Source: an uncultured delta proteobacterium (GTDB taxonomy: Bacteria; Desulfobacterota; BSN033; UBA1163). From it: a stretch of 64,000 bases of DNA. A program made the position numbers and the translations under genes. Shown here piece by piece: positions 2 to 58,738 of this stretch. Below the pieces are notes generated by a model. The model did not search any database. It was not told the origin of the DNA and worked only from the letters and a program-made list of their open reading frames with translations. The first letter of the stretch is position 1. Each line of letters opens with the position of its first letter. The DNA lies in the NCBI GenBank assembly GCA_963739325.1, contig CAVTZZ010000036.1:1777-65776 (forward strand). Direction: 5' to 3'.

Positions 2-160
2 CACCTCCTCTCGGATGAAAGAGCACGGAAGGAGGTGGGAGAAAAAGGCTATCAATTTCTTCAGAAGCATCGAGGGGCAACCGAAAGGATGTTTGAGGAG
101 ATCAGACCGTTCCTCACTCAATTGCGGAATGCAGAATGCGGATTGCGGAATAGAGAGTAA
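2..160 (+). CDS. 3' end of a WaaA/KdtA-like Kdo transferase gene (partial; 5' end lies outside the window)
   Basis: The frame is open from the window edge: HLLSDERARKEVGEKGYQFLQKHRGATERMFEEIRPFLTQL..., stop TAA 158-160. It resembles a KdtA C-terminus and sits directly upstream of lpxK, its usual neighbour. Only 52 codons are visible. Confidence 0.4.
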   Translation, partial: HLLSDERARKEVGEKGYQFLQKHRGATERMFEEIRPFLTQLRNAECGLRNRE

Positions 161-255
161 TGGATTCGGATCTTTGAATAAGCTCAAAGTTCCTGCTGCA
201 GGGGCTGAAAGCTGAAAGTAAAAACTCTTTGAGCTTTGAGCTTGACGCTTTGAGC
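124..255. repeat. Stuttered intergenic repeat/hairpin locus 1
   Basis: GCGGAAT-GCAGAAT-GCGGATT-GCGGAAT (124-151). Then GCTCAAA (182-188), GCTGAAA x2 (204-217) opposed to TTTGAGC-TTTGAGC-TTGACGC-TTTGAGC (228-255). Confidence 0.7.
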
Positions 256-280
256 TAAGAAATGAGCTATTTTTTAACAT

Positions 281-1349
281 ATGCGAATTGACCGATTCCT
301 ATATCAAAAAGAAAAATCCTTCTGGATAAAGGTGCTTCTCTTCCCACTTTACATTCTCTCTTTTCCTTACGGAGGAGTGGTTCGGGCAAGAGGCCTTTTC
401 TATACTCTCGGTCTCAAGAGGCCTAAACGTCTCTCCTGTCCAGTCATCAGTGTGGGTAACATCACCGTAGGAGGGACTGGGAAAACCCCTTTAGTGATGG
501 CCTTAGCAAAGGGGTTGACGGAAAGGAAAATTCCAGTAGCCATTCTGAGCAGAGGGTATAAGGGAAAGAAGTCTTCTGGATCATTGGTGAGCGATGGCCA
601 GACTGTCTCTTCTCTCACCGGAGGAGTCAGGTGATGAACCTTTTCTGATGGCCAACTCCCTTAAAGGCATTCCTGTGTTCATCGGGAAAGACCGTTTCGT
701 CACTGGTCAGATGGCTCTTCAACGATTCAGTGTTCGTGGACTGCTCCTGGACGATGGTTATCAGCATCTGCAACTTTATCGAGATTTAAATATCCTGCTC
801 ATCGACTCACACATGGGTTTTGGAGACCGTCATCTTCTTCCGAGAGGTATCCTGAGGGAACCCTTGTCTCATCTTCGCAGGGCCCATCTCTTCCTCCTCA
901 CCAAAGTGGAAGATCCTGAGGAATGCCAATCTCTGGAAGCAAAACTCCGCGAGATCCATCCTTCATCACCCATTTTTCATAGCCATTATGAACCATTAGG
1001 TCTGATGGGTCCCCTGGGGGAATGGGAGCAACTTCATTCCCTCAAGGGGAAGAAGGTGCTCGTCTTTTCCGGAATCGCTAACCCTAACTACTTTTCATCC
1101 CTATTGAAGAAATGCGGGATGGAGATCGTAAAAGAAGTCATCTTCCCGGATCATCATCTTTATACCCCCAACGATTTAGCTTCTCTCGAAAAGCAAGGAA
1201 GAGGAACGGATGGGTTTGTTACGACGGAGAAGGATATGGTAAAATTAACGAGATTCGATATCCATCATCTTCCTATTCGAGCCCTTCGCATCGAAGTAAG
1301 AATATGGAAGGAAGAAGAATTTTATCAAAGGGTGATGGAAATATTTTGA
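281..1349 (+). CDS. lpxK: Tetraacyldisaccharide 4'-kinase LpxK, reading frame broken by a +1 shift near 605-635 (pseudogene or assembly indel)
   Basis: ORF 281-634 carries the LpxK P-loop [12 protein letters not shown] and ILSRGYKGK...[11 protein letters not shown] 594-1349, in the +1 frame, continues with [16 protein letters not shown]..., the expected next LpxK block. Together they make a normal-length (~355 aa) LpxK. Confidence 0.85.
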
Positions 1350-1387
1350 GTTATGAGTTAAGAATGACCTGAAGGAGAATTAAGAGG

Positions 1388-2914
1388 ATGAGTGAACTCG
1401 TTAAAATCTTTGATACGACTCTACGGGATGGGGAACAATCTCCAGGGGCGACGATGAATGTGGCCGAAAAGGTGAGGATCGCCCAGCAGTTGGAAAAGCT
1501 TAATGTGGATATTATTGAGGCAGGTTTTCCAATTTCTTCAGAGGGGGATTTTGAGGCTGTCAAGGTCATCTCTCAAACAATCAAGCGGTCAGAAGTAGCT
1601 GCTCTGGCCAGGGCAAATCCTCAAGATATTGATCGAGCCTGGGAAGCGATCAAAGAAGCAAAGTTTCCTAGAATCCATACTTTTATTTCTACCTCCGACA
1701 TCCATCTTAAATACCAATTGAAAAAATCGAAAGAGGAGGTCATCAAAATTGCTACCCAGTCTGTAGAGAGGGCAAGGCGTTATACGCCCAATATCGAATT
1801 TTCAGCCATGGATGCCACACGAAGTGATGTTCGATTTCTCTCTCGAGTGATCGAAGCAGCCATCCAAGCAGGAGCAAACACCATCAATATCCCTGACACA
1901 GTGGGTTACGCCATCCCTTCAGAATTCGGAAAACTTATCCAGACCCTTCGGCAGCAAGTGAAGAGAATCGAAAAAGTAATCCTAAGCGTCCACTGCCATA
2001 ATGATTTAGGATTGGCCGTTGCAAACTCTCTTTCTGCGGTCGAAAATGGTGCCAGACAGGTAGAGTGCACAGTCAATGGAATTGGTGAGAGGGCAGGTAA
2101 TGCTTCGCTCGAAGAAGTCGTGATGGCTATTCGGACACGAAAGGATCTGTTCCAGTTTCAAACACGACTCAACCCGAAGCACATCTTTTCCACAAGTCGA
2201 TTGGTTTCCAAAATCACCGGTATGTTGGTCCAGCCCAATAAAGCGATCGTGGGTGCCAATGCCTTTGCCCATGAATCTGGAATTCATCAGGACGGAATTC
2301 TAAAAGAGAAACTGACCTACGAAATCATGACTCCTGAATCGGTTGGAATCCCGAAAACTTCTCTTGTCTTAGGGAAACTCTCTGGCCGACATGCTTTCCG
2401 AGATCGGTTAAAGGATTTGGGATATTCGCTTTCTGATGAGGACTTGGAAAAAGCCTTTAATCGATTTAAACAGCTGGCGGATAAAAAACGCGACATCTAT
2501 GATGAGGATATCGAGTCGATCGTGGTGGAGGAAATCCTCCGGATGCCTAAGCGGTTTAAATTGGACTATCTCAATGTTATTACTGGAAATATCACCGTGC
2601 CGACGGCTACCGTCAAGATGGAAGTGGATGGAAAACTCATTCAAGAGGCTGGTTTTGGCGATGGACCTGTAGATGCTGTCTTCAAGACGATCAAAAAGAT
2701 TACCCGCACAAGATCAAAACTCTTGCAGTTTGCCATTAACGCCATCACCGGCGGAACAGAGGCGCAAGGTGAGGTAACCGTCAGACTGGAGGAGAAGGGA
2801 CAGACGGTCATCGGTCAAGGCGCGGACACCGATGTGATCGTAGCCAGTGCCAAGGCTTATATCAATGCCCTCAATAAGATGGAATTCAAAAAGCAGAAAT
2901 TAGTGGGAATGTAA
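1388..2914 (+). CDS. leuA: 2-isopropylmalate synthase (LeuA/CimA family)
   Basis: 508-aa ORF starting MSELVKIFDTTLRDGEQSPG (HMGL-like TIM barrel), with HCHNDLGLAVANS and a C-terminal LeuA dimerisation/regulatory domain. It lies next to leuCD. Confidence 0.92.
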   Translation: MSELVKIFDTTLRDGEQSPGATMNVAEKVRIAQQLEKLNVDIIEAGFPISSEGDFEAVKVISQTIKRSEVAALARANPQDIDRAWEAIKEAKFPRIHTFISTSDIHLKYQLKKSKEEVIKIATQSVERARRYTPNIEFSAMDATRSDVRFLSRVIEAAIQAGANTINIPDTVGYAIPSEFGKLIQTLRQQVKRIEKVILSVHCHNDLGLAVANSLSAVENGARQVECTVNGIGERAGNASLEEVVMAIRTRKDLFQFQTRLNPKHIFSTSRLVSKITGMLVQPNKAIVGANAFAHESGIHQDGILKEKLTYEIMTPESVGIPKTSLVLGKLSGRHAFRDRLKDLGYSLSDEDLEKAFNRFKQLADKKRDIYDEDIESIVVEEILRMPKRFKLDYLNVITGNITVPTATVKMEVDGKLIQEAGFGDGPVDAVFKTIKKITRTRSKLLQFAINAITGGTEAQGEVTVRLEEKGQTVIGQGADTDVIVASAKAYINALNKMEFKKQKLVGM

Positions 2915-2923
2915 CGCATTCGC

Positions 2924-3000
2924 AGGTTGAGGTTCAGGTTTAGGTTAAGAGGAAGATCAAAATCTTATTTCTTTCTTAACCTTAGCCTCAGCCGTAACCT
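2924..3000. repeat. Stuttered hairpin locus 2 (leuA-leuC spacer)
   Basis: AGGTTG-AGGTTC-AGGTTT-AGGTTA (2924-2947) opposed to TAACCT-TAGCCT-CAGCCG-TAACCT (2977-3000). Confidence 0.75.
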
Positions 3001-3039
3001 TTTGTGCAATGTAGACAGTATATGAAGAAAAAGAATCCA

Positions 3040-4311
3040 ATGACGATTACTGAAAAGATCCTCTCGGCCCATGCAGGTAAGAAGCACGTTTCTCCTGGCG
3101 ACCTCATTGACGCTCGGGTCGATCTGGCCCTCGGCAATGATATTACCGCGCCGCTTGCCATTCAGGCCTTTGAGGAGATGGGCGCAAAAAAAGTATTCAA
3201 TCGGAATCGTGTCGTCTTGGTCCCTGATCACTTTACACCTGCTAAGGACATCCTTTCTGCAGAACAATGTAAAATTCTCAGGAATTTTGCGAAGACCTAT
3301 CGCATCACCCATTATTTTGAAATTGGAGAATGTGGGATCGAACATGCCCTTCTCCCCGAGAAAGGGTTGGTTCTGCCGGGCGATGTGGTGATTGGGGCAG
3401 ACAGTCATACATGTACCTATGGTGCCCTTGGGGCCTTTTCAACCGGAGTAGGCAGCACAGACCTCGGGGCAGTCATGGCCACAGGGAGGCTCTGGTTTAA
3501 GGTTCCGGAGAGCATCAAGTTCATCTTTTATGGAAAGCTCAATCCCTGGGTCTCTGGAAAGGATCTCATTCTCTTCACGATCGGGCAGATCGGGGTGGAT
3601 GGAGCCCTCTATCAAGCAATGGAATTCTCTGGAGAGACGATCAGGACGTTGCCCATGGAGGGTCGATTCACAATGGCCAATATGGCGATTGAAGCCGGAG
3701 GAAAGAGTGGCATTTTTGAACCCGATCGAATCACCCTTCACTACATAAAGAAGAGGGCCAAGAGACCCTATAAGCTTTACTACAGTGATCCTGATGCTAA
3801 ATACAGAGAGGTGTATGAATATGATGCGTCGAAGATCTACCCACAGGTTTCACTTCCTCACATCCCTTCCAATACCAAAGATGTGAGGAAGGTTGGGAAG
3901 ATCGAGATTGATCAAGTCGTCATTGGCTCCTGTACCAATGGCCGTCTTGAAGACCTCCGCGTGGCAGCAAAGATTTTAAAAGGGAAAAAGATCGCCCCTT
4001 CGTTGCGACTCATTATCATCCCTGCCACTCAAGAGATTTATCGTCAGTCTTTGAAGGAAGGGCTCTTCGAAATATTTCTTTCAGCAGGCGCTGTCATCAG
4101 TCCGCCTACCTGCGGTCCCTGTCTTGGAGGACATATGGGCGTTTTGGCAGAAGGGGAGAAGTCATTGGCCACAACCAACCGCAATTTTCGCGGAAGGATG
4201 GGCCATGCCCAGAGCGAGGTCTATCTCGCTAGCCCCGCGGTAGCCGCAGCCAGTGCAGTCAAAGGAAGAATCTGCCATCCGGAAGAAGTGGTTAAGAAAA
4301 CCAGTCATTGA
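3040..4311 (+). CDS. leuC: 3-isopropylmalate dehydratase large subunit (aconitase family, short LeuC/HacA type)
   Basis: [13 protein letters not shown]..., [22 protein letters not shown] and CGPCLGGH (aconitase Fe-S ligand motifs). The start is placed at the third in-frame ATG, where homology begins; the ORF opens at 3004. Confidence 0.9.
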
Positions 4312-4336
4312 GTCATTGGATTATTGAGTTATTAGG
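4303..4336. repeat. Stuttered tandem repeat locus 3 (leuC stop to leuD RBS), no inverted partner
   Basis: GTCATTGA-GTCATTGG-ATTATTGA-GTTATTAG. The same word occurs at 16299-16330 and 58651-58680. Confidence 0.7.
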
Positions 4337-4361
4337 AGACTAAAACAGAACGGTAAAAAAC

Positions 4362-4865
4362 ATGAAGATCGAAGGAAGAATCTGGAAATTTGGATCTGAT
4401 ATCGATACGGATGCGATCATTCCCGCTCGTTACCTCAATCAGTCAGATGCAAAGGAACTGGCCAAACATGCGATGGAGGATGAAAGACCAGAGTTTCCAA
4501 AAGCAGTAAGAAAAGGAGATATTCTATTGGCCAGAAAGAATTTCGGCTGTGGTTCCTCCCGGGAACATGCACCCCTTGCCCTAAAGTCGGCCGGAATCTC
4601 CTGCATCATCGCAAAAAGTTTTGCTCGAATCTTCTATCGAAACGGGCTCAATCTCGGTCTTCCTCTTCTCGAATCCCCAGAAGCTTCGGAGGCTATCCAG
4701 GAAGGGGATCGGGTTCGAGTGAATCTTACGATGGGTGAGATCTTTGACATCACGCAAAAGAGAAAGTTTTTTGCAAAACCCATCCCAGCTTTTATGCAAG
4801 ATTTAATCAGGGATGGGGGCTTGATCCGCCATCTTCGGAAAAAAGGACAAAAAGGGAAGAGGTAA
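4362..4865 (+). CDS. leuD: 3-isopropylmalate dehydratase small subunit
   Basis: 167 aa with IWKFGSDIDTDAIIPARYL and NFGCGSSREHAP (aconitase swivel domain). It directly follows leuC. Confidence 0.9.
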   Translation: MKIEGRIWKFGSDIDTDAIIPARYLNQSDAKELAKHAMEDERPEFPKAVRKGDILLARKNFGCGSSREHAPLALKSAGISCIIAKSFARIFYRNGLNLGLPLLESPEASEAIQEGDRVRVNLTMGEIFDITQKRKFFAKPIPAFMQDLIRDGGLIRHLRKKGQKGKR

Positions 4866-5014
4866 ATTAAGATTTTCAGAAAACCACTCTTCCCTAATTA
4901 AAATGTTTTCCCAACCATTCTGAATCTTGCCCTGTTAAATATTAATTTTCGTAGTTTTCCTCGAGATTTGATCAAAAACTCCTCCGCTACCCCCTTTTTT
5001 TCCGTCTTGACATT

Positions 5015-5043
5015 TATATATAAAACATATATTTTTATATATA
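5015..5043. promoter_or_regulatory. Perfect 11-bp inverted repeat (TATATATAAAA-N7-TTTTATATATA) overlapping the vapBC promoter; putative VapB operator
   Basis: TTGACA at 5007-5012, the palindrome at 5015-5025/5033-5043, AAGGAG at 5044-5049, ATG at 5059. Type II TA operons are typically autoregulated at such palindromes. Confidence 0.45.
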
Positions 5044-7076: not shown

Positions 7077-8172
7077 ATGCATGGGTTCATGTGGAACCCA
7101 GCCGAAAAATTGTCCATAACGGAAGAGGAGCTCAAGACCCTGAAAGCCTGGGTTACGGCCAAAACTAGTCCCCAACGGACCGTTTTGCGTGCGCGCATCT
7201 GCCTGTTGGCTGCGGAGGGTTTGCCCAACAGGGCCATTGCCAAAGCCTTGAAGACCAGTCGTCCGACAGTTGTGCAATGGCGCAAGCGGTTTGAAGAACG
7301 AGGCTCGCAGGGGCTGGCAGAAGATGCCCCCCACGGCCTGAGTTCCCGCGCCCTGCCCGCTGATAAGGTCAAGGCGATTGTGGAGGCTACTTTGCATACG
7401 ACGCCTCCTGATGCGACTCACTGGTCTACGCGGACGATGGCCGAAGCCATGGGCGTCAGCAACGCCACAGTCTCTCGGATTTGGGATGCGCACGGGCTGC
7501 AACCGCACCGCGTGGAAGGGTTTAAGCTTTCGAAGGATAAACGGTTTGTGGAAAAGTTGACGGACGTGGTGGGGGTATACCTGAACCCACCGGACAAGGC
7601 CGTCGTTCTGTGCGTGGATGAGAAATCGCAGGTGCAGGCTCTGGACCGGACGCAGCCCGGATTGCCGATGAAGAAAGGGCGTTGTGGGACGATGACGCAC
7701 GATTACAAACGCAACGGGACCACTTGCCTGTTTGCGGCATTGAATGTGCTGGAGGGGAAGGTCATCGGCTCTTGTTATCCACGGCATCGGAACATCGAAT
7801 TCCGAAAAATTTCTGCGACAGATCGACCGTGAAACCCCCAAAGACTTGGCCATCCATATGGTTCTGGACAACTACGGCACGCACAATCACCCCAAGGTCA
7901 GGGCATGGTTGCAAAAGCATCCCCGCTTTCATTGCCACTTCACCCCGACTTCCTCCTCGTGGCTGAATCTCGTTGAACGGTGGTTTGGGGAGATCACTCG
8001 TAAACGTATTCGGCGTGGTGTGTTCAGAAGTGTATCGGATCTGGTGTCTGCCATTGAAGAGTTTATCCGAGTGAACAACGCAAATCCAAAACCATTCGTG
8101 TGGACGAAAAACGTGGACGCAATCTTGGAAAAGGTCGCACGTTGTAAAGCCGTTACTGTAACACTACACTAG
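7077..8172 (+). CDS. IS630-family DDE transposase, encoded in two overlapping frames (7077-7832 and 7744-8172) joined by a +1 shift at an A5 run (7805-7809)
   Basis: The N-terminal HTH region, CVDEKSQ (first D), MVLDNYGTHNHPKV (second D) and SSWLNLVERWFGE (E) are all present. Skipping one A gives RHRNIEFRKFLRQIDRETPKD, which fits the family pattern RHR..EF..FL..ID. Confidence 0.88.
8141..8169. repeat. IS630 right terminal inverted repeat
   Basis: GTTGTAAAGCCGTTACTGTAACACTACAC followed by TA-G. Confidence 0.85.
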
Positions 8173-8333
8173 TGCGGTGTCTCAATAACGGCTTTACAAT
8201 AATCTGAGACCTGTCATTCCCGCCCCGTATCAAGTACGGGGTAAACTCCAGCGGGAATCCAGATTGAAAAGACTGGATTCCAGATCAAGTCCGGAATGAC
8301 AAAATGGGCAAATTCATTTCTGAGAAAGCACAC
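8172..8333. mobile_element. MITE-like element with IS630-type ends, directly abutting the IS and sharing its TA
   Basis: 8172-8200 matches the IS terminal repeat at 23/29 positions in left-end orientation. The far end, ...TTTCTGAGAAAGCACAC-TA-G (8333-8336), is a weaker right end (about 16/29). There is no ORF. The interior (8213-8300) folds as a closing stem GTCATTCC/GGAATGAC enclosing two hairpins: ATTCCCGC[CCCCGTA-TCAAG-TACGGGG]...GCGGGAAT and GGAATCCAG-N10-CTGGATTCC. Confidence 0.55.
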
Positions 8334-10083: not shown

Positions 10084-10112
10084 AAATCTTGTTCCATTTC
10101 AAAAGTATCTGA

Positions 10113-10143
10113 AAAGGCCGACCTTTGGATCGGCCTTTTTTAT
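10113..10143 (+). terminator. Rho-independent terminator after asd
   Basis: AAGGCCGA-N9-TCGGCCTT followed by a T-run. Confidence 0.7.
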
Positions 10144-10261
10144 TAATCTTATATGAAATACGACCATGCCCCATGGTCTTTATCATTTTTTGACAGGATA
10201 TGCATTGGAGTATTAAAATGCCTCTATACCTGAAAAAGTTAGGAAAATAGGACATCAAAAG

Positions 10262-10984
10262 ATGTATGAAAAACGGACCTATCGAAATTTGGTCAAGACC
10301 GATGATCTCGTCAAATTTGAGGTCATTGTTAAGGAGACAGACCTTCTTGTTCGGGCAGAGAGGGATCTTTCCAATGAGACCAGAGAATCGGTATTGAAAT
10401 ATCGTCATCAACTCGAAACCTATATCGAAGCAAACCCTGAGTTCCAAAGGAGCCTCATTCCCCTGAAGGATGATTCTTATGCCCCGGAGATCGTTCGAGA
10501 GATGATCCGAACCTCTCAGTTGGCTCAGGTAGGCCCGATGGCGGCTGTGGCTGGAGCCATGGCAGAATTTGTTTCCAAAGATCTGTTCCCCATCTCAAAA
10601 GAGGTGATCGTTGAGAACGGTGGGGATATCTATCTCGCTACCTCAAGAGAGCGCACCATCGGAATCTATGCTGCTGATTCTCCTCTCAGCCTTAAAGTAG
10701 GGGTTGTGATCAGCCCCAAAGATTCCCCTCTTGGCGTTTGTACCTCTTCAGGAACGGTTGGTCCCTCCCTCAGTTTTGGAAAGGCAGATGCTGTCTGTAT
10801 CCTCTCCAAATCTGCAGCGCTTGCCGATGCTGCAGCCACATCGGTTGGAAATATCGTCAAGGAAAAGAAAGATGTCGAATTGGGTCTGGAGAGAGGAAAA
10901 GAGATCGAGGGAGTTTCAGGAGTGCTCATCATCGTTGGGGAAAAGATGGGCGTCTGGGGAAATGTGAAACTGATACAGCTTTGA
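10262..10984 (+). CDS. UPF0280 / ApbE-like family protein
   Basis: 240 aa. The MYEKRTYRN... N-terminus and the Ala/Gly-rich core (PMAAVAGAMAEFV, ENGGDIY) resemble the UPF0280 family as I remember it. This is not verified. Confidence 0.5.
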   Translation: MYEKRTYRNLVKTDDLVKFEVIVKETDLLVRAERDLSNETRESVLKYRHQLETYIEANPEFQRSLIPLKDDSYAPEIVREMIRTSQLAQVGPMAAVAGAMAEFVSKDLFPISKEVIVENGGDIYLATSRERTIGIYAADSPLSLKVGVVISPKDSPLGVCTSSGTVGPSLSFGKADAVCILSKSAALADAAATSVGNIVKEKKDVELGLERGKEIEGVSGVLIIVGEKMGVWGNVKLIQL

Positions 10985-10991
10985 GTACATT

Positions 10992-11105
10992 AGAATTCAG
11001 AAGTCAGTAGCCAGAATCCAGAATAGAACCGATCAAATTTTGGAAATCCTTTGTGGACTTTTTTCCATTCTGGATCCTGACTTCTGGATTCTGGATTCTT
11101 GAATT
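10992..11105. repeat. Stuttered hairpin locus 4
   Basis: AGAATTC-AGAAGTC-AGTAGCC-AGAATCC-AGAATAG opposed to CATTCTGGATCCTGACTTCTGGATTCTGGATTCTTGAATT. Confidence 0.75.
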
Positions 11106-11111
11106 AAAGAT

Positions 11112-12449: not shown

Positions 12450-13179
12450 GAAGAGATTAGCCTCATTAAAGGAATTGGAGGGGCGTCTCAGTTACCAATT
12501 TAATGAGATCGGATTGCTGGATAAAGCATTTACCCATCGGTCTTTTATCAATGAAACAGATTCCTCGGGGAAACAGTCCAATGAAGTCTTGGAATTTCTT
12601 GGCGATGCTGTCCTCAACCTTGCAGTGAGTCGTATGCTCCTCCAGAAATTTCCAGAGGCTCGAGAAGGAGCCCTTTCGATATGGAGGTCACATCTCGTCA
12701 AACAGAGCTCTCTTGCATTCCTTTCGAGGGAACTTCGTTTGGAAGAACATCTCCTCCTCGGAAAGGGAGAACTGCTCAATGGCGGGATGGAAAAATCCTC
12801 TATCTTGGCCAATGCCTATGAAGCCTTAATTGGGGCCATCTTCATGGATTCAGGATTCCATCGAGCCTTAGAAATCATCCAAGGTCATCTCGAACCCTAT
12901 CTCCAAACTCAAACTCCATCGGTACTATTTAATGATTATAAAAGCCTTCTCCAAATACATTCTCAACAGTTTCATGGATCCTCTCCTCAATATAAAGTTT
13001 TGAAAGAGTCCGGCCCAGACCATGATAAACGATTTCAGGCCTCTGTGGTCATCAGTGGCGAAGTCAAGGGAATCGGATGGGGAAGGACCAAAAAAGAGGC
13101 AGAGCAGGAAGCCGCCCAAAAAGCCCTAGAAGAGCTTAAATTGTCAAATGACAAAGTTCAAAGTTCAAATGAAATCTAA
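12442..13179 (+). CDS. rnc: Ribonuclease III
   Basis: NEVLEFLGDAVLNL (RNase III signature), ANAYEALIGAIF, and a C-terminal dsRBD (GPDHDKRF...KKEAEQEAAQKAL). The start is placed at the MDEKRL ATG and overlaps the mtaB stop. Confidence 0.92.
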   Translation: MDEKRLASLKELEGRLSYQFNEIGLLDKAFTHRSFINETDSSGKQSNEVLEFLGDAVLNLAVSRMLLQKFPEAREGALSIWRSHLVKQSSLAFLSRELRLEEHLLLGKGELLNGGMEKSSILANAYEALIGAIFMDSGFHRALEIIQGHLEPYLQTQTPSVLFNDYKSLLQIHSQQFHGSSPQYKVLKESGPDHDKRFQASVVISGEVKGIGWGRTKKEAEQEAAQKALEELKLSNDKVQSSNEI

Positions 13180-13336
13180 ATGACCAAGGTCAAAGCTCAT
13201 CCTTCGCCAAGGTCAGGATGGTGCTGTCCTGAAAAGAATTATGTATGAACAAATCATGGTGAGCCTGTCGAACCATGAAATTTGGAATTTGACATTGATT
13301 TGACATTTGGATTTTGAAATTTGACATTTGAGGTCT
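13141..13336. repeat. Stuttered hairpin locus 5 (starts inside the rnc 3' end)
   Basis: GTCAAATGACAAAGTTCAAAGTTCAAATGAAATCTAAATGACCAAGGTCAAAG opposed to AAATTTGGAATTTGACATTGATTTGACATTTGGATTTTGAAATTTGACATTTGAGG. The central hairpin is TCAGGA-N8-TCCTGA. Confidence 0.7.
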
Positions 13337-14422: not shown

Positions 14423-15220
14423 CTATTTGCCAAGCAATCCCTTTACCTTGTCGAGAACCTTCCCCCCTTCAGTCCCCTTGACGACAGATTCCACTTGCTT
14501 TTTTGCACCTTCGGTCGCTTCTTCTAAGTTCGTTCCCAGTGCCTTTAGTTCCTTATTCAGGGTATCGGTTACGGCAGAGGAAGTGATCTTTCCGTAGAGT
14601 GCCGCTAATATCTCCTCGGATACCTTGGCAGGTGATGCACCTCCTTTTTCGCCTCCTATATTCTTAAGATGGATATCCGGAAGTGCTACACTTATGCTTT
14701 TGCTCCCAAGGAATGCCGTGACGAGGGACACCTTCCCATCTTTTAAAACGAAATCTCTGATCAGCAATTTTTTGCCCTTCCCTTCCTCCTTTGATTTTTC
14801 TTTAGGAGACTCATCCATGCCCGCAGTTTTTTGAACATTGTCGATGATGGCCCTAAAGTTATCTGTACCTTTCGCCTTCTCATAGGTGATTTCAGGACCG
14901 GTAATCTCAATCCTGTCAATAATCATTGGGTCTTTCATCAGCGACTTCTCGTCAACATTCACGAAGATGGATCTCACTTTCATGGCTTCTGGTGACTTGA
15001 ATCCCTTTGGATTACCGAGATAAAACCCTTTGAGCTTAGCCTCCCCAGAAAATATCGATACACTCACATCTTCCAGGCGTACATCGGTTTTGGTTATGCC
15101 GGGACCGTAGGTATTCACTGCAGTCTTGATCAAGGGACCGATATTCGAAATCCCTATCACAAGGATGAGGATGATGATAACGATGACAGCCCCACTACCT
15201 ATAAGAATCCATTTTTTCAT
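14423..15220 (-). CDS. Membrane-anchored hypothetical protein (AsmA/DUF748-like N-terminus)
   Basis: 265 aa with an N-terminal TM helix, then repeated beta-rich segments and a Lys/Glu-rich linker. The family assignment is tentative. Confidence 0.4.
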   Translation of the reverse strand: MKKWILIGSGAVIVIIILILVIGISNIGPLIKTAVNTYGPGITKTDVRLEDVSVSIFSGEAKLKGFYLGNPKGFKSPEAMKVRSIFVNVDEKSLMKDPMIIDRIEITGPEITYEKAKGTDNFRAIIDNVQKTAGMDESPKEKSKEEGKGKKLLIRDFVLKDGKVSLVTAFLGSKSISVALPDIHLKNIGGEKGGASPAKVSEEILAALYGKITSSAVTDTLNKELKALGTNLEEATEGAKKQVESVVKGTEGGKVLDKVKGLLGK

Positions 15221-16268: not shown

Positions 16269-16368
16269 AAGCACCAAATTCCAAGCACCAATCCATGAAG
16301 TAATTAGGTCACTAAGTCATTAGTCATTAAATGATATAATTACTTAGTAACTTAATAACCTAAGGACT
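16269..16368. repeat. Stuttered hairpin locus 6
   Basis: AAGCACC-AAATTCC-AAGCACC-AATCC, then GTAATTAGGTCACTAAGTCATTAGTCATTAAATGATATAATTACTTAGTAACTTAATAACCTAAGGAC. Confidence 0.7.
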
Positions 16369-16460
16369 AAAAAATGTTTGGCATTTAGAACATAGGTTGT
16401 GAAGGGGTAATTTTTCTTCTATAATGGTTTTAAAAACCTCGTCTTGAAAGGAATTTCGTT

Positions 16461-18095: not shown

Positions 18096-18105
18096 AGTTA
18101 AACAT

Positions 18106-18207
18106 CAATGAAAATTGTAAAATGCAAATTGAAAAATTCAAATTGGTTGAATTAAACTGTTGAGCCTTTTTCATTTTGCATTGTTAATTTTGTAATTTGC
18201 ATTGAGG
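18106..18207. repeat. Stuttered hairpin locus 7 (opp binding-protein/permease spacer)
   Basis: CAATGAAAATTGTAAAATGCAAATTGAAAAATTCAAATTGG opposed to TTTTTCATTTTGCATTGTTAATTTTGTAATTTGCATTGAGG. Confidence 0.75.
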
Positions 18208-20031: not shown

Positions 20032-20035
20032 CGTA

Positions 20036-20127
20036 TCATTGCATATTGCAAAATGCAAATTGCAAAATTCAAAATTAAGATAAAAACATTTTAAATTTTA
20101 CAATGCTAACTTTTCATTTTTCATTGA
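20036..20127. repeat. Stuttered hairpin locus 8 (opp permease/ATPase spacer), paralogous to locus 7
   Basis: CATTGCATATTGCAAAATGCAAATTGCAAAATTCAAAATT opposed to TTTTAAATTTTACAATGCTAACTTTTCATTTTTCATTGAG. Confidence 0.75.
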
Positions 20128-20134
20128 GTTACTT

Positions 20135-21137: not shown

Positions 21138-21210
21138 GCATAGCGCATGGAGCATAGGGCATAGCGTTTTCTTACTTCAAACGCTTTGCGCAATGAGCTT
21201 TGCTCTTTGC
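21138..21210. repeat. Stuttered hairpin locus 9 (between the two opp ATPase genes)
   Basis: GCATAGCGCATGGAGCATAGGGCATAGCG opposed to CGCTTTGCGCAATGAGCTTTGCTCTTTGC, with one mismatch per ~8-nt unit. Confidence 0.75.
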
Positions 21211-30788: not shown

Positions 30789-30831
30789 ATTATTTAAAGT
30801 CAACTACCATCTGCTAATAACGATGGCTTGA

Positions 30832-30942
30832 GGGTTCGTGGATTCAAGGGATCAAGGGTTCAAGTAAAACCTTTTTAATCTATAATAATTCTTGAACCCT
30901 CGAATCCCTGCCTACGGCAGGCAGGCTTGGCCCCTGGAACCC
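30832..30942. repeat. Stuttered hairpin locus 10 (response-regulator stop to tRNA-Ala)
   Basis: GGGTTCGTGGATTCAAGGGATCAAGGGTTCAAG opposed to CTTGAACCCTCGAATCCCTG, plus CCTGCC-TAC-GGCAGG and CTTGGCCCCTGGAACCC. Confidence 0.7.
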
Positions 30943-31299
30943 TTATACAAGTCCTAAGAGTTTTCGGATCGTCGTTTTTAACTCGGTTAAATCAGCACAC
31001 TTGACCACATAGGCATCTGAAGCCCAGGTGGTGATATCTTGCTTATATTCACCATACGCAGAGCACATGATGATGGGAAGATGTCTCTCTCTTTCTCGGA
31101 TTCGTTTCAAGGTTTCAATCCCATTCATCCCTGGCATCTTGATATCGAGGGTGATGATGTCGGGTTTAAAGAGAGGAAGTTTCTCGAGGGCCTCCTCCCC
31201 ATTCTTTGCCAATTCTACCGTAAAGCCTTCCTCTTCCAATTCCTCTTTATAGAGAAATCGGATATTCTCTTCATCATCGACAATCAGGATCCTCTTCAT
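30943..31299 (-). CDS. Single-domain response regulator (CheY-like receiver)
   Basis: 118 aa with MKRILIVDDE, phospho-acceptor D in DIITLDIKMPGMNG, and the KCADLTEL region containing the conserved K. Confidence 0.9.
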   Translation of the reverse strand: MKRILIVDDEENIRFLYKEELEEEGFTVELAKNGEEALEKLPLFKPDIITLDIKMPGMNGIETLKRIRERERHLPIIMCSAYGEYKQDITTWASDAYVVKCADLTELKTTIRKLLGLV

Positions 31300-54125: not shown

Positions 54126-54179
54126 CTTTTCTTGATTTCATAATATCAATCTGGTAGATAAATCAAAGGTGGGGTTCCC

Positions 54180-55763
54180 TTGAAAATCAGAAGAGTTCCA
54201 ATCCTCTTGGTTGCGGTTCTGTTGATGGGTTTGTCTCAAACACCACTTGGTCAAACTGCACCCAAAGTCCAATTCAGTATCGTTTACACTAATGATGTAA
54301 TGGGTGAGGTCGAGCCCTGTGGGTGATTCAGGAGCCCTCTTGGTGGTATCGCCAAGAAATCGACTCTTATCTCCCAGATAAAAAAAGAGGGGAGAAAGAT
54401 CCTTCTCCTCGACACTGGAAACCTCCTCTTTCGAAAACTTCCTCAAACGGAAACCAAACGAAGAGATGCTCTTCTTCGTGTTGATCTCCTCCTTCAATCC
54501 TATAATGATATGGGATATGATGCGGTCAATGTGGGTGAGAAGGATTTGATGATGGGGCTAAAATTCCTCTCCGATCTGAGCCAAAAGGGCAAATTTCCAT
54601 TCATTTCAGCCAACCTTGTGGATAAAAAGACTCAGAAGGAAGTTTTCAAACCTTTTGTGATCAAAGAAATGGCTGGGCTGAAGATTGGGATTATTGGACT
54701 CCTGGATGACTTATACAACCCAACTCTTCAGGAAAAAGACCCTGGACTGATCATCTTAGAACCTCTATCGAGATCAAAAGCTCTGACTAAGAGCCTTAGG
54801 GAATATTGTGATGTGATCGTCGCCCTCTCCCAATTGGGCGAGTCAAAGGATAAAAAACTGGCCAGAGAAAATCACGAGATCGATCTGATTCTGGGAGGAG
54901 GGGGGGAATCCAAAAGGGCTGTCATTGAAAGGGTGAACGAAGTCCCCATTTATCGAATGGAACCAAGGGGAGGATATTTAGGTCGGATTGACTACTCCTT
55001 GGTCGATGCTAAAAAACCTGTCAAATTTATCATTACCAGTGAACGGGATGAGATGGAAAAGAGATTGGAAAGGTTGATCACCCGGTCAACACAACTTAAA
55101 TCAGAGATAGCGAAATCTGCGAAACAAGATGATATGAAGGTCAAGGAACTGAAGGTCTTGGAATCGAAACAGAAGGAATTGGAGAAGACCCTCTTGGCCT
55201 TCCAAGATAAAAATTTTTATAAACACATTTCGATCCCTGTCCAACTCTCTGTGAAGGACGATCCTAATATCATGAAGGGAGTGGAGATCTACCGAGCCGA
55301 ATCAGCAAAATTATACAAACCAAAAGTGGCGGCCCTGCCAGAAAAAGAGCTACCGGAGAAAGAGATGGTCGCCCGAATTCCTAAAGAGAGCCCTTTTATT
55401 GGAGCGATCTCTTGCAAACGATGCCACGAAACAAATTATCGAAATTGGCTGAAGACCAAGCATGCGAAGGCCTCCCAGACTATCGTCGCCTCTCCTAAAT
55501 ATGCCCAAGAGGAGTGTCTCATTTGCCACTCCACCGGTTATGGAAAGATGGGAGAATATGCCACAGTGGAAGAAATCCCTTTCTTCCTACGAGGGGTACA
55601 ATGTGAAGCCTGTCATGGGGAAGGAAAGGGACATCCTGGAAAGGGAGGAATTGAGAGAAAAGTTACCCTCGGCATCTGCCGAAACTGCCACACCAAAGAT
55701 CAGAGTCCTGTTTTTAATTACGTTGCCTATCTCGAAAAGATCGGTTGTAAAATCTCAAAATAA
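54180..55763 (+). CDS. Secreted degenerate metallophosphatase/5'-nucleotidase-like domain fused to a tetrahaem cytochrome c domain; in-frame TGA at 54324-54326 (candidate selenocysteine)
   Basis: TTG 54180 follows AGGTGGGG. The signal peptide is (M)KIRRVPILLVAVLLMGLSQTPLGQTA, followed by FSIVYTNDVMGEVEPCG-TGA-FRSPLGGIAKKSTLI. This is in the same frame as track ORF 54510-55763. The C-terminus carries CKRCH, CLICH, CEACH and CRNCH. Confidence 0.6.
54338..54357 (+). promoter_or_regulatory. SECIS-like hairpin downstream of the in-frame UGA
   Basis: UCUUGG-UGGUAUCG-CCAAGA starts 11 nt after the UGA, and its apical loop contains GGU. Flanking GAG/CUC could extend the stem across an internal loop. 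Confidence 0.35.
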
Positions 55764-55767
55764 AAAA

Positions 55768-55850
55768 GGGTTCAAGGATTCGAGTCATAGTCTAAGTGTT
55801 TCCTTTTAAGATTTTCACTCGAACCCTCGACCACTTGGCCCCTTGAATCC
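55768..55850. repeat. Stuttered hairpin locus 11, same word family as locus 10
   Basis: GGGTTCAAGGATTCGAGTC opposed to ACTCGAACCCTCGACCACTTGGCCCCTTGAATCC. Confidence 0.7.
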
Positions 55851-56009
55851 TTCCAATTTACTATCCAAGGAATTCCCACCCAATCAGGAAGACGCAGAGA
55901 AGCCCGATGGCCAGCATGGCAAATCCTACGACGGTTGAGAAAAGATCGGCCATTGCACTGGGATATTTATCCCTGATAGGTCTCCAATGTCTTCTCTGCC
56001 AACATACGC

Positions 56010-57836
56010 TTATACTGCTCCGATCCGTTCCTCCACCAGTTCATATTTGGGAAATCTTCCTGTGAAGATCACCGTATCGATCGGGAACTTCGAAGGCCGA
56101 AAATGGGTATTGAAGAAATGGACTGTAAAGATGAAGCCAGAGGCTAACAATGCCTCATCCGAATGGACGATCGTTGCAATATTGAGTATCCATCCTGGCA
56201 TGAAGATGGTGAAGAATTCCGGAAACCAGAGCATCAGTCCAGAAAGTCCGATGGCGAACATCCCCCAAAAGACAGCTAAAAAGTCGAACTTCTCCCAGTA
56301 GGTCCATCGATCAAACTGGGGTTTTGGCCCTTTGTTAAAGAACCATTGGATCATACCAATGATGTCTTGCACATCCTTCCAACGAGGGCAGAGAGAATCT
56401 GGACCAAAAAGTCGCTGGAGTGGATTGGGATTTCCTTTAATCTTTTTGAAGAAGAGGAAGTAGAAGATATAGGTGATAGTGCTGCCAAAATAGCCAAAGG
56501 TAATGGCTGCACAGATGCGATGGATTAATCCTGCCATTTTAGCCCCTCCCAGAAAATGCATCAACCCACTGGCCCAGGGCGCATGGGAGAATTTTAAAGG
56601 AAGCCCGGTGAGAACAAGACCGATGAAGGTGACCATCATGGTAAAGTGAATCACGATGTCGAAGGTACTAAATCGACGATAGATGTGACCCGCTTCATCC
56701 GGCCTCACATGTTGTGGGAAGAATATTCCTTTGGCCCTTAACTCCCTCTTCTCCCAGAAGTCTTTCCGCCACCAGAAAAAGGTATGGATCCAAAAGACTC
56801 CAAAGACAGAAACCAGGAGGCCAGTCATCAGAATGAAAGTCCCATAAAGGACTGGCTCCCGCTCTGGATCGGTATGGGTTGCATGTGCGAGCCACTGAAC
56901 GAAGTTGACATTGGCCCGTGGGTGGCACTTTCCACAGGTCTCTACCAACCGAGCCTCAGAGATAAGGGACTTTGGATTATCTGGAGGCAGAATGCTATGA
57001 AAACCATGGCAGTCCGCACAACCTGCCACCAATGAAGGATAGCCTAATTCCTCAACTTTTCCGTGGTAACTTTCATAATAGGTCTGGGTAGCAATGAGAA
57101 AAACCTTATTTCGTTCCATCATCTCGTTATCGGCATGGCACTTCTGACAGACCTCTGTATGAAACTCCTTCCGCAATGCCACCACTTTTGGCTCATCCCC
57201 CTTTAATATGGGAACCTTGTGAAGACCATGACAATCACTGCAGGTAGCAGAATCCGGGTTCCCAGCAAGGACAGATTTGCCATGGACGCTTTCAGAGTAA
57301 CCATCGTCGGAATGGCAAGTTGTGCATTTCTGGACCACTCGGGTTTTATCCCCTTTCCATGGGGTCATCTCATGGATATCTTGATGGCAGTCCTTACATT
57401 GAACATCGTTGATGAAGTGGGCGCTTGCATAATGTTCGGCCCCTTCCTTTTTATGACATCGATGGCAGGTAATTGGTTCGGCTTGGATTCTTGCCCCTTT
57501 TGCCTTCACATGGGTTTTGACGTCAGTAATGTCCCAGTGGCAACCGTTGCAGGAATTGGCTCCATGAACCGACTGTGCAAATTTCCTCTCGCTGATCTTA
57601 TTGTGGCACCCGAGACATTCCGAGTTGTCGATACACTCTAAACAATATTCTCGACCCTTAATAATAAATTTCTCCCCCTTTTTTCCGGGTTCGGGAGTTT
57701 TGGTCACCCCTTCCGGTTTAGGACTCTCTTTTTCAGCAACAGGATTTGCAGACCAAATTAATCCAAGGCTTAAAGATAGAAGAATACCAGAAATGATAAA
57801 AAAGATGAAAATTGAAATTTTAAACTTCGATTTCAT
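56010..57836 (-). CDS. CbcL-like fusion: periplasmic nonahaem cytochrome c domain + HydC/FdnI-type dihaem cytochrome b membrane domain
   Basis: A signal/anchor, then nine CxxCH, then IYRRFSTFDIVIHFTMMVTFIGLVLTGLP (the b-type cytochrome entry motif). Further TM helices carry conserved His residues (IHRICA, IVHSDEA, FTVHFFNTH). An alternative start lies at 57854. Confidence 0.82.
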   Translation of the reverse strand: MKSKFKISIFIFFIISGILLSLSLGLIWSANPVAEKESPKPEGVTKTPEPGKKGEKFIIKGREYCLECIDNSECLGCHNKISERKFAQSVHGANSCNGCHWDITDVKTHVKAKGARIQAEPITCHRCHKKEGAEHYASAHFINDVQCKDCHQDIHEMTPWKGDKTRVVQKCTTCHSDDGYSESVHGKSVLAGNPDSATCSDCHGLHKVPILKGDEPKVVALRKEFHTEVCQKCHADNEMMERNKVFLIATQTYYESYHGKVEELGYPSLVAGCADCHGFHSILPPDNPKSLISEARLVETCGKCHPRANVNFVQWLAHATHTDPEREPVLYGTFILMTGLLVSVFGVFWIHTFFWWRKDFWEKRELRAKGIFFPQHVRPDEAGHIYRRFSTFDIVIHFTMMVTFIGLVLTGLPLKFSHAPWASGLMHFLGGAKMAGLIHRICAAITFGYFGSTITYIFYFLFFKKIKGNPNPLQRLFGPDSLCPRWKDVQDIIGMIQWFFNKGPKPQFDRWTYWEKFDFLAVFWGMFAIGLSGLMLWFPEFFTIFMPGWILNIATIVHSDEALLASGFIFTVHFFNTHFRPSKFPIDTVIFTGRFPKYELVEERIGAV

Positions 57837-57872
57837 AATCCCCCCAAAATCCAAACTTGATTAATTACCAAT

Positions 57873-57975
57873 GAGATTGCTTCCCTGCCTGCCGTCAGGC
57901 AGGGGTTCCACCTCGCAATGACATGAGTGATTATTGTCATTTTGACCCCGTATTAAATACGGGGGAGGAATCTCG
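57873..57975. repeat. REP/MITE-like structured palindromic element related to 8213-8300
   Basis: It contains the hairpins CCCTGCCTG-CCGT-CAGGCAGGG, AATGACA-N11-TGTCATT and CCCCGTAT-TAA-ATACGGGG. The last matches CCCCGTA-TCAAG-TACGGGG at 8223-8241. The closing arms are GAGATT.../...AATCTC. It accounts for the spurious ORF 57861-58043. Confidence 0.55.
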
Positions 57976-58263
57976 TTTTTAAAAAGTTTTGAAATCAATA
58001 GAGTTAAAAAATCTATGAGGAAAGAATGTGAATTTTTTAACACAATGAAACTGTGAAGTCAATAAATTTTCTCCTTTTTAACCAACCAACGTCATTCAAT
58101 TGTCCTCTTGAATCTTTTGAGCAATTTGCATAGATCTTCGATTCAATCGCTTGTCGATCTCTTCAGCATTCTATTATAATAACACAAGGCTTTCTCTCTT
58201 GACAATTTATAAGCCAATACTCAATATATAATCTAAAAACGTTGGGCGCATCGCTGAAAAAAT

Positions 58264-58599
58264 ATGCCAACTTATGAGTACAGAGCCGCTGATCCAGAAA
58301 AAAGTTGTGACTATTGCAGATCTGGTTTTGAGGTTACCCAGAAAATAACCGAACCTGCTTTAACTCTCTGCCCTCATTGTAAAAACCCAATTTTTAGAGT
58401 TCTCTTCGCTCCTGCCGTGGTAATTAAAGGAGGTCCGGTCACGGAAACGGAACGAAAGGTCAAGGAGTATGAAAAAGAGGGGAAATGGAGCCATGCTGCC
58501 GAATTAGCAGATAAAGAGTCGGAAAAGACGAAGAGAGAGGATCTGAAGACCCGCGCCTTAGAAAATTACAAGAAAGCAGGATATCATTTTGATAAATAG
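58264..58599 (+). CDS. FmdB-family zinc-ribbon protein
   Basis: MPTYEYR...CDYCRSGFEV...CPHCKNP (the CxxC...CxxC FmdB signature) with a charged C-terminal tail. Confidence 0.8.
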   Translation: MPTYEYRAADPEKSCDYCRSGFEVTQKITEPALTLCPHCKNPIFRVLFAPAVVIKGGPVTETERKVKEYEKEGKWSHAAELADKESEKTKREDLKTRALENYKKAGYHFDK

Positions 58600-58617
58600 G
58601 ATACCTAACCCACGCCC

Positions 58618-58738
58618 AAATGGAATGTCAAAGTCTAAATTGCCCATATAGTCATTGAGTCATTGGTCATTAGTTATTGAATGACCTAATGACTGAATAA
58701 CTTAATGACCAAAATTATATTTAGACATTTGAAATTGG
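58618..58738. repeat. Stuttered nested hairpin locus 12
   Basis: The outer arms are AAATGGAATGTCAAAGTCTAAAT / ATTTAGACATTTGAAATTGG. The inner sequence is GTCATTGAGTCATTGGTCATTAGTTATTGAATGACCTAATGACTGAATAACTTAATGAC. Confidence 0.75.

Follow-up and report, generated by a model that had tools for sequence, protein, structure and literature searches.

The question raised by this stretch of DNA, a window of 64,000 nucleotides from an uncultured deltaproteobacterium (contig CAVTZZ010000036.1, positions 1,777 to 65,776; G+C ~45%), is why so many of its intergenic gaps carry hairpins with stuttered arms, each arm being a run of degenerate copies of a 6–8-nt word, and what, if anything, maintains them. 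The genes concerned include a housekeeping set, namely lpxK, leuA, leuC, leuD, asd, mtaB, rnc, the oppABCDF operon, an ABC-F gene and cytochrome genes. These loci form a lineage-wide superfamily of small intergenic palindromic repeats in Syntrophaceae-like Thermodesulfobacteriota, marked by a density far above that outside the clade, a conservation of retained copies that points to selection by the host, and a rapid exchange of elements between stop and start codons. Our leading, still tentative reading is that they most likely act as intercistronic RNA stem-loops.

An earlier note, made from the window alone, had listed at least 12 gaps with tandem 6–8-nt words, and all twelve loci were recovered where it had placed them by Tandem Repeats Finder (TRF), an inverted-repeat search and reading. 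The detector used for counting required a tandem segment (self-match at a lag of 5–9) and, within 130 nt, a second tandem segment matching the reverse complement of the first; a stricter setting (mismatch −2) retained only one element, being too strict for degenerate units, and was then relaxed and calibrated on shuffles. Nine word-array hairpins of the window passed the detector (204–250, 2924–2993, 10992–11102, 13139–13331, 16295–16363, 18109–18199, 20038–20125, 21138–21210 and 58645–58709), as against 0.00 in 30 dinucleotide-preserving shuffles, so that the structures clearly exceed shuffled expectation; tandem clusters numbered 63, compared with 23.4 ± 3.5 in dinucleotide shuffles. Of the 11 hairpin loci, 10 had RNA folding z-scores of −2.3 to −5.4 and one, 20032–20132, had −0.7; the predicted RNA folds are single long imperfect stems of 25–45 bp with about one mismatch per unit, much as the note had described them. 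Two loci below the detector threshold nevertheless fold well (30825–30945, z −3.2; 55766–55852, z −3.1), two are nested composites (16269–16388 and 58620–58741), and three are solo arrays lacking an inverted partner (123–151, 4303–4334 and 60735–60754). A hairpin, which had been claimed for every named locus, is therefore present at most of them and absent at 123–151 (GCGGAAT x4) and 4303–4334 (GTCATTG x4), where the arrays are solo and z > 0. Comparable arrays were not found in 23 other intergenic gaps examined in the window. The elements are neither CRISPR arrays, whose repeats of 23–50 nt are separated by unique spacers whereas the units here are 6–8 nt long and directly abut, nor plain microsatellites, as had also been pointed out. 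Rfam returned only tRNA matches at the gathering threshold, and a scan of 1–22500 at E <= 1 gave none on the elements; exact-protein look-ups for OppC and LeuD (strain-level variants of the window genome) returned no record. The elements are listed below with their folding z-scores and, for two of them, the minimum free energy (MFE).

123–151, plus strand: E1a, solo array of ~4 GCGGAAT-type heptads, no inverted partner (TRF; z +0.4).
181–256, plus strand: E1b, hairpin upstream of lpxK; left arm AGCTCAAAG ... GCTGAAAGCTGAAAG (181–218), right arm CTTTGAGC x3–4 (227–256) (detector; MFE −34.7, z −5.1).
2924–3000, plus strand: E2, leuA–leuC intercistronic hairpin; AGGTTN hexads x4 (2924–2950) and AACCT-type hexads (2974–3000) (detector; z −5.4).
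4303–4334, plus strand: E3, solo array of ~4 GTCATTGN octads, which does not fold (TRF).
10990–11105, plus strand: E4, hairpin between a 240-aa open reading frame (ORF; 10262–10984) and mtaB; left arm of five heptads (AGAATTC, AGAAGTC, AGTAGCC, AGAATCC, AGAATAG), right arm of five GGATTCT-type heptads (detector; z −5.3).
13138–13331, plus strand: E5, hairpin at the rnc 3′ end; left arm of TGACAAA/TTCAAAG heptads (13138–13185), loop of ~90 nt, right arm of TTTGACA/TTTGAAA heptads (13277–13331) (detector; z −3.6).
16269–16388, plus strand: E6, composite upstream of oppA; a GTCATTNN-octad hairpin (16297–16367) inside CCAAAT-family remnants (16269–16294, 16373–16388) (detector; z −3.5).
18103–18207, plus strand: E7, oppA–oppB intercistronic hairpin of AATGCAAA/ATTGAAAA heptads (detector; z −2.5).
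20035–20128, plus strand: E8, oppC–oppD intercistronic element of ATTGCAAA heptads with a weaker TTTTCAT right arm (detector; z −0.7).
21138–21210, plus strand: E9, oppD–oppF element; GCATAGNG units (21138–21166) and CGCTTTGC-type units (21182–21210) running into the oppF start (detector; z −2.3).
30825–30945, minus strand: E10, GGGTTCAAG-octad hairpin in the spacer of tRNA-Ala and a response-regulator gene (both minus); its right arm contains a nested GC-rich palindrome, CCTGCCTACGGCAGGCAGG (30907–30925) (z −3.2 on the plus and −4.8 on the minus strand).
55766–55852, no strand assigned: E11, GGGTTCAAG-family hairpin in the convergent spacer of two cytochrome genes (z −3.1; below detector threshold).
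58620–58741, plus strand: E12, nested composite upstream of the ABC-F gene; outer TGTCAAA/GTCTAAA heptad arms (58620–58642, 58718–58741) and an inner GTCATTNN octad hairpin (58650–58709), with a predicted fold of one continuous nested stem (detector; MFE −37.1, z −4.9).
60735–60754, plus strand: E13, short solo array CCAAAG ATCAAAG TTCAAAT.

The odd C-terminal tails that had been attributed to arrays beginning inside the upstream gene are real. E1a falls within the last 12 codons of the upstream ORF (stop 158–160; tail ...LRNAECGLRNRE), E3 starts within the last leuC codons and has the leuC TGA stop inside its first GTCATTGA unit, the left arm of E5 encodes the last 13 codons of RNase III (tail ...ALEELKLSNDKVQSSNEI), so that one locus does start inside rnc itself, and E13 encodes the last ABC-F codons (...SAKDQSSN). 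Typically, an element starts either before the upstream stop codon or at most ~10 nt from it, and ends 7–22 nt before the next start; the base of the E7 right arm holds the downstream Shine-Dalgarno sequence, GAGG.

The architecture extends far beyond this genome. Relatives were found through MtaB, with one genome per species, the nearest being Syntrophaceae / Thermodesulfobacteriota metagenome-assembled genomes at 64–83% identity with conserved gene order, and a metagenome scan yielded 80 further loci of the same clade (L081–L160). The densities of detector-positive elements per 10 kb were as follows.

Window: 1.41.
Clade species-representative genomes (L001–L016): 0.76.
Clade metagenome contigs (L081–L160): 1.05.
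Other Desulfobacterota: 0.14.
Selenomonadales: 0.06.
Dinucleotide shuffles of every set: 0.

The architecture thus recurs about once per 10 kb in ~100 related Syntrophaceae-like genomes and is 7–20 times rarer outside the clade. The structures are accordingly not confined to the window, and the description of them as genome-specific has to be given up for a clade-wide one (0.76–1.41 per 10 kb). Over 96 elements the unit period was 7 in 73, 8 in 16 and 6 in 7, with a median loop of 44 nt (range −2 to 128), and among 217 unique arrays of co-directional spacers 155 had an inverted partner within 200 nt, 29 being clearly solo. Each element consists of two inverted arrays of a degenerate 6–8-nt word, mostly an A-rich heptad, around a loop of ~20–130 nt.

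The view that these structures share no consensus did not survive either, since different genomes, and loci that are not orthologous, have word families and even long composites in common. Such families include CCAAAT, TGACAAA/TTCAAAG, GCAGATT and GCGGAAT, and likewise GTCATTNN, GGGTTCAAG, GCATAGNG and GTTCGGAG; the CCAAAT family has a CGAAAT variant whose right arm is altered to match. A composite, a GTCATT hairpin within a CCAAAT element, precedes oppA in the window and mtaB in L086, and it follows rnc in L128 and L131. Moreover, a 19-mer of E1a, GCAGAATGCGGATTGCGGA, is common to a solo array at a non-orthologous site of L005, the E9 left array is also common to L005, E2 is found in L147 and L100 as well, and the E10 word family is present in L005, L147, L092, L137 and L114. 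The E4 motif, by contrast with these dispersed families, was found only upstream of mtaB, so that some families are spread over many loci and genomes and others are confined to one locus.

Solo arrays were met in two further settings. The CCAAAT-family 22-mer AAGCACCAAATNCCAAGCACCA occurs exactly in two GC-rich IMG/VR viral contigs (L161, 1012–1033; L162, 2046–2067 and 5936–5957), in each case as a solo array between a stop and a start codon, and L162 is dense with other solo arrays of 6–9 nt words (CGCCAAGGA, GAGTGAT, CGATTA, CACGAAATG and ACGCAAAA). In addition, the lpxK stop codon overlaps in several species with a conserved solo array built of GAGTTAT heptads (window 1344–1363; L001 1190–1215; L147 3632–3675; L092 636–663).

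How far retained copies are conserved was assessed by comparing the identity of orthologous spacers with that of four-fold degenerate sites in the flanking genes, as listed here.

E2 versus L005: spacer 0.93, four-fold sites 0.38–0.47.
E8 versus L002: spacer 0.90, four-fold sites 0.51–0.52.
E7 versus L005: spacer 0.86, four-fold sites 0.39–0.40.
E3 versus L001: spacer 0.84, four-fold sites 0.52–0.54.
E4 versus L004: spacer 0.84, four-fold sites 0.45–0.50.
E5 versus L003: spacer 0.82, four-fold sites 0.45–0.48.

Retained copies are thus 82–93% identical where four-fold sites are saturated (0.38–0.54), which argues that the host selects for the elements, because a copy merely inserted and then ignored would have decayed. 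In 17 species, the mean pairwise identity of E4 was 0.84 for the left arm, 0.77 for the first right-arm units and 0.60 for the loop, in comparison with 0.78 for MtaB nucleotides and 0.53 for four-fold sites. The five left-arm heptads are nearly invariant, an AG-N-A-N-Y-C skeleton being conserved together with unit-specific variants; by inspection, nothing in this arm was conserved as a small ORF, a promoter or an anti-Shine-Dalgarno pairing. An established copy can thus be kept under purifying selection across species with saturated synonymous sites, from which it follows that the host, too, benefits from it.

This conservation coexists with a rapid turnover. Orthologues differ in length by whole units (one 7-nt unit between L087 and L089, 7 nt between the window and L002, and 12 nt, that is, two hexads, between the window and L005), and the E4 right arm has 2–7 units across species, which points to replication slippage. 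Of the generative mechanism suggested earlier, slippage plus palindromisation, the former is upheld by these whole-unit indels, whereas a unit-order permutation (mean z −0.38), described below, lends no support to palindromisation as a copying step. The suggested comparison, whether words turn over while the architecture is kept, came out positive at the rnc 3′ end, where the word family differs between species. Depending on the species, the spacer upstream of mtaB holds E4 (25 species, collected by pattern), other word families, unrelated GC-rich palindromes, a ~210-nt miniature inverted-repeat transposable element (MITE) or nothing, the stop and start codons nearly abutting in the empty spacers. 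On the MtaB tree, E4 lies on several deep branches interleaved with empty sites, indicating an old element with many losses. The E7 site is similarly empty (7-nt spacer) in L002, L008, L013, L014, L114, L123, L142 and L154.

The exchange is most evident in L081, the closest relative, whose coding DNA is 89–98% identical to that of the window. E5 aligns between the two and E7 is nearly identical, both being kept, whereas five spacers (oppB–oppC, oppC–oppD, oppD–oppF, mtaB-upstream and oppA-upstream) are completely different, identity returning only a few bases away from the stop and start codons. Thus, E8 is swapped in L081 for a TGACAAA-family element between oppC and oppD genes that are 97.7% identical in nucleotides, and E9 is likewise replaced. 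In other pairs with 93–98% identical flanks, E4 has collapsed to a minimal GAATTC hairpin (L010), its interior has been replaced by a GC-rich palindrome, or the whole of it has given way to a MITE; in the mtaB-upstream spacer of L132 and L145, a second E4 copy is nested in the loop of the first, the motif being found at no other locus. Arrays therefore gain and lose whole units, and the stretch from a stop codon to the following start is where entire elements are inserted, nested, collapsed, deleted or exchanged.

Other small palindromes occupy the same spacers. A MITE of ~160–210 nt with terminal inverted repeats CAGGNTGCTGAAAAAG...CTTTTTCAGCAGCCTG lies at TTAG just before E4 (L090, L129, L133) and in L133 has replaced it. 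The palindrome ACCCCGTTAGAAAT...ATTTCTAACGGGGT stands at two positions ~100 nt apart in L087 (3361–3545) and L089 (4072–4200), with flanks 99–100% identical, which indicates recent mobility of a small non-array palindrome in near-identical genomes. A separate GC-rich palindrome resembling repetitive extragenic palindromic (REP) sequences (CCTGCCTGCGCGAAGCCGCTTCGGCGAAGGCAGG and shorter variants) is repeatedly inserted in the right arms of word-array hairpins, as if attracted by arrays (window 30907–30925; L002 and L004 in the rnc spacer; L001 in oppD–oppF; L014; L156), and a further GC-rich family, CCCCTCACCCC...GGGGAGAGGG..., fills many of the same spacers, at times nested in word-array elements (L081, L088, L096, L100, L144, L155, L157 and others). 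A clean 158-nt insertion in L081, which is not a typical word-array hairpin, is flanked by TAA...TAA without terminal inverted repeats; TAA target-site duplication was rejected as a general feature, this insertion being the single instance. Also rejected was the idea that the arrays are the ends of an autonomous transposon, the long-range pairs (200–8000 nt apart) being cross-matches of separate elements.

Mobility of some families is likely, and the elements might even be purely selfish mobile DNA of the MITE type, or of the kind formed by paired REP sequences (REPINs), spread by a transposase or recombination and conserved only for recognition by the mobilising enzyme. This would account for the families dispersed across loci and genomes, for the GTCATT-in-CCAAAT composite at different loci in the window, L086, L128 and L131, for the nested insertions and the cassette-like replacement between near-identical genomes, and it would fit genomes that hold other active small palindromes (L087 versus L089; the ~210-nt MITE). 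We nevertheless consider it decidedly improbable, in that neutral decay would be expected of orthologous copies that are in fact 82–93% identical at saturated four-fold sites, E4 is confined to a single locus and yet ancient, neither terminal inverted repeats nor convincing target-site duplications came to light, array pairs flanking a gene within 8 kb were not found, and no transposase was seen beside the elements. The other origin without benefit to the host, in which slippage at small hairpins that already existed would have produced the elements neutrally, with neither function nor mobility, is suggested by the indels in whole units, by L010, which retains only the minimal GAATTC hairpin at the E4 site, and by heptamers being the commonest class of long simple-sequence repeats in bacteria (PMC4679880). 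It is the least credible of the explanations and largely refuted by the strong conservation relative to synonymous sites, by the identical families at unrelated loci and in unrelated genomes, and by the density ~7–20 times higher in the clade than in other sampled loci. Both a purely selfish and a purely neutral origin thus fit poorly, because retained copies are conserved.

With respect to placement, 82 elements lay in co-directional spacers, as against none in 96 divergent and none in 106 convergent ones on a crude gene map, a contrast that is suggestive only, since the spacers are largely orthologous replicates; E11 of the window does occupy a convergent spacer. The operon that contains E4 and E5 is delimited by a classical GC-rich terminator (10111–10140) and a strong promoter-like site (10190–10219). 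Because nearly all elements lie between co-directional genes, and those of E4/E5, opp and leuA–leuC lie inside operons, the elements are probably transcribed.

A further possibility is that they are leaky or bidirectional intrinsic terminators or attenuators setting operon polarity with a purine/A-rich 5′ arm and a T-rich 3′ arm. Indeed, the 5′ arm is the purine/A-rich one and the 3′ arm T-rich in 89 of 96 elements, a strand-symmetric property, and this polarity fits the A-tract/hairpin/T-tract layout of bidirectional terminators, many right-arm words having runs of T3 (ATTTGG, TTTGTCA, CTTTGAA). However, several families lack T runs, the AGGTTN, GGGTTCAAG and GTCATTNN families having no U-rich 3′ arm, the stems are AT-rich and mismatched, and elements split the cistrons of one transporter that need co-expression (oppA–B, C–D, D–F). 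A terminator scan called none of the elements, and the terminators that the organism uses elsewhere are of the classical type, a GC-rich stem with a T tract. The terminator function raised earlier is therefore not borne out, two elements being held within an operon that the classical terminator and the strong promoter bracket, and we regard this explanation as very improbable.

The element that begins inside rnc had suggested a special link to RNase III. An array is present at the rnc stop in 59 of 62 species by eye and in 48 of 57 (84%) by an automated measure, but other leu and opp operon junctions are occupied at 70–100%, and occupancy is as high at leuA–leuC, leuC–leuD and oppD–oppF. Hence the link shows no specificity for rnc, and autoregulation specific to rnc was rejected.

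Whether the elements act as RNA or as DNA was approached through strand and pairing evidence. Since whole elements are palindromes whose orientation cannot be defined, solo arrays were used for the strand test: 16 were purine-rich on the sense strand and 4 pyrimidine-rich (p 0.012), at a median of 13 nt from the upstream stop. The mean MFE was −37.1 kcal/mol on the sense as against −35.4 kcal/mol on the antisense strand (Wilcoxon p 0.036), and G·U pairs numbered 316 and 235, respectively. Several observations weigh against an RNA stem-loop. These sense-strand biases are small and come from non-independent orthologous copies. Stem mismatches of the G·U and A·C types are equal on the sense strand (27 versus 27), and transversions dominate. 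In 24 elements, complementarity between the arms was no lower once the units of one arm had been permuted (mean z −0.38), so that the arms behave as two inverted arrays of one degenerate word. There were no scorable compensatory double substitutions, the arms barely varying and the register being ambiguous; RNAalifold on 17 E4 orthologues similarly gave no usable covariation, with near-invariant arms and right arms that differ in unit number. The E4 left arm is conserved even where the right arm has two units or none (L140, L014, L139, L094, L103), and solo arrays such as E3 are conserved too, neither of which a plain requirement for a paired stem explains. Finally, many species have an empty spacer at the same junctions, so that any function must be dispensable.

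Several of these points favour the main rival explanation, which is serious though unlikely, namely that the elements are DNA-level protein-binding arrays, in which each 6–8-bp word is the subunit site of a cooperative nucleoid-associated or ribbon-helix-helix-type protein arranged head-to-head, and the hairpin potential is a side effect of the inverted symmetry. Precedents are the omega repressor, whose targets are 7-bp heptad arrays of either direct or inverted orientation, and MetJ, which binds tandem 8-bp metboxes. Consistent with such binding, unit variants are not mirrored between arms, G·U and A·C mismatches show no asymmetry, the AG-N-A-N-Y-C skeleton of the E4 left arm is conserved without a full partner, solo arrays are conserved, and the E4 arms are conserved (0.84, 0.77) around a near-neutral loop (0.60 versus 0.53); paired tandem-repeat sites in Geobacter metallireducens have likewise been suggested to bind proteins of the integration host factor (IHF)/HU type (PMC2700814). 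On the other hand, with at least 10 unrelated word families, an equal number of specificities or a single, very tolerant reader would be called for, the elements separate cistrons within operons and do not occur in divergent (promoter) spacers, the conservation extends to unit-specific variants and not to the skeleton alone, and there is the weak sense-strand bias in folding energy and solo-array orientation.

The architecture has been described twice before, as short tandemly repeated repetitive (STRR) hairpins of heterocystous cyanobacteria (PMC2670836, PMC2408588) and as paired sites in G. metallireducens (PMC2700814), in both cases without functional resolution. In Nostoc PCC 7120, ttgtcagttgtcagttgtca followed by ccactgactactgac forms an array and a reverse-complement array between co-transcribed genes (PMC2408588), and for the heptamer hairpins between hupS and hupL of Nostoc and Anabaena an effect on transcript stability or translational coupling was proposed (PMC2670836). 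The present elements resemble the STRRs in having tandem 7-nt intergenic words (period 7 in 73 of 96), with several families per genome and many copies, and in the hairpin-capable succession of array and reverse-complement array between co-transcribed genes; they differ in phylum, in words, in the additional periods of 6 and 8, and in the dominance of the inverted pair (155 of 217 arrays). None of the STRR words (STRR1–3 consensus) is in the clade word census. Purifying selection and cassette-like turnover, both found here, are stated nowhere in the STRR literature consulted.

The G. metallireducens "predicted global regulator binding sites" of classes 1–3 (Aklujkar et al. 2009; PMC2700814) are built of GTTGCTYN x4 (24 pairs), TCTCCGTS[Y] x3 (21 pairs) and MTYCTGA x5 (8 pairs), are intergenic, for example in proB–proA, and are absent from the sister species. 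They share with the present elements the 3–5 tandem repeats of 7–9 nt, the opposite-strand pairs at variable distance, the multiple copies and the intergenic position. Their words, unlike those here, are GC-richer and unrelated, none of the three being among the clade word clusters, and they were read as IHF/HU-type DNA sites without a test, that study (PMC2700814) containing no comparative or selection analysis. The TAACTGA repeats of marine Beggiatoaceae, some cyanobacteria and Bacteroidetes (MacGregor 2015), for which a post-transcriptional role was proposed, are also intergenic heptamer arrays (sets of 2–6), some overlapping the end of the upstream ORF; in contrast to the present elements, they are almost all direct (of 170 sets, one is inverted), are built from one word and lie just upstream of start codons (PMC4679880).

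Like REP sequences, bacterial interspersed mosaic elements (BIMEs) and REPINs, the elements are extragenic multi-copy imperfect palindromes after stops or between cistrons, with several families, nesting or clustering, and long vertical persistence. Roles proposed for REP sequences are stabilisation of mRNA and binding of gyrase or IHF, and stabilisation of upstream cistrons was reportedly found by Newbury et al. in 1987. In distinction from the 20–40-nt palindromic units of REPs and REPINs, the arms here are direct arrays of 6–8-nt words with no internal dyad, and the stems are mismatched every ~6–8 bp. A conserved GTAG or CGTC tetranucleotide at one end is given for REP sequences (PMC3733652); no common tag of this kind was apparent by inspection of the arm ends, which vary by family (TTAGAATTC..., AAATTGTCAAATG..., AAGCACCAAAT..., AGGTTG...). 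No gene for a REP-associated tyrosine transposase was identified among the ORFs annotated beside the elements in the 64-kb window, these ORFs being housekeeping genes. As compared with MITEs, the whole word-array element is itself the inverted repeat, and as compared with intrinsic terminators, which have a short GC-rich stem and a U tract at the end of a transcription unit, the elements are inside operons and none was called. What is new here is the clade-wide census, the demonstrated selection, the cassette-like turnover and the arm polarity.

Three other features of the window were recorded. lpxK is split into overlapping ORFs (281–634 and 594–1349), with profile positions ~1–88 in the first and 89–309 in the second, as the result of a frameshift, a sequencing error or a pseudogene. 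A 265-aa ORF at 14423–15220 (minus strand) is absent from L081, where the flanking genes are adjacent. A palindrome at 8142–8199 has 29-nt arms, no loop and 83% complementarity (TTGTAAAGCCGTTACTGTAACACTACACT / AGTGCGGTGTCTCAATAACGGCTTTACAA), and contains no tandem words.

Returning to the RNA stem-loop reading, the transcribed elements would fold into imperfect stems of 25–45 bp between cistrons and may act as has been proposed for REP and cyanobacterial STRR hairpins, that is, by blocking 3′ exonucleases or by being processed by a double-strand-specific enzyme (RNase III), and could in this way adjust how stable adjacent cistrons are, and how well translated, relative to each other. The C-terminal tails would be by-products of arrays overrunning the stop codon. 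Our confidence that the elements act in this manner, as stability barriers or processing sites, is moderate to low. A bolder proposal, which we regard as unlikely, is that the word-array hairpins constitute a host-maintained, lineage-wide cis-regulatory system of an undescribed kind with exchangeable intercistronic cassettes. A factor would read the periodic 6–8-nt words on RNA or single-stranded DNA, or RNase III would act on the mismatch-punctuated stems, and in many operons the cassettes would determine how cistrons are processed, stabilised or coupled, with slippage generating new cassettes to be installed precisely between stop and start codons. The 5′-purine/3′-pyrimidine polarity, the conserved solo left arms and the viral 22-mer might in that event be signatures of the reader.

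The hairpins of REP, BIME and STRR elements have been known for forty years with their function unsettled, and the present clade is an unusually tractable case, offering dozens of word families with one architecture, orthologous series that follow one element through ~25 species, demonstrable purifying selection at the host level, and a rapid turnover bounded by stop and start codons, so that the question of RNA or DNA posed by such hairpins becomes directly testable. For annotators, it provides a reason not to dismiss such spacers, or C-terminal tails made of arrays, as noise. For slow-growing syntrophs, post-transcriptional tuning inside operons would, if true, be of physiological interest.

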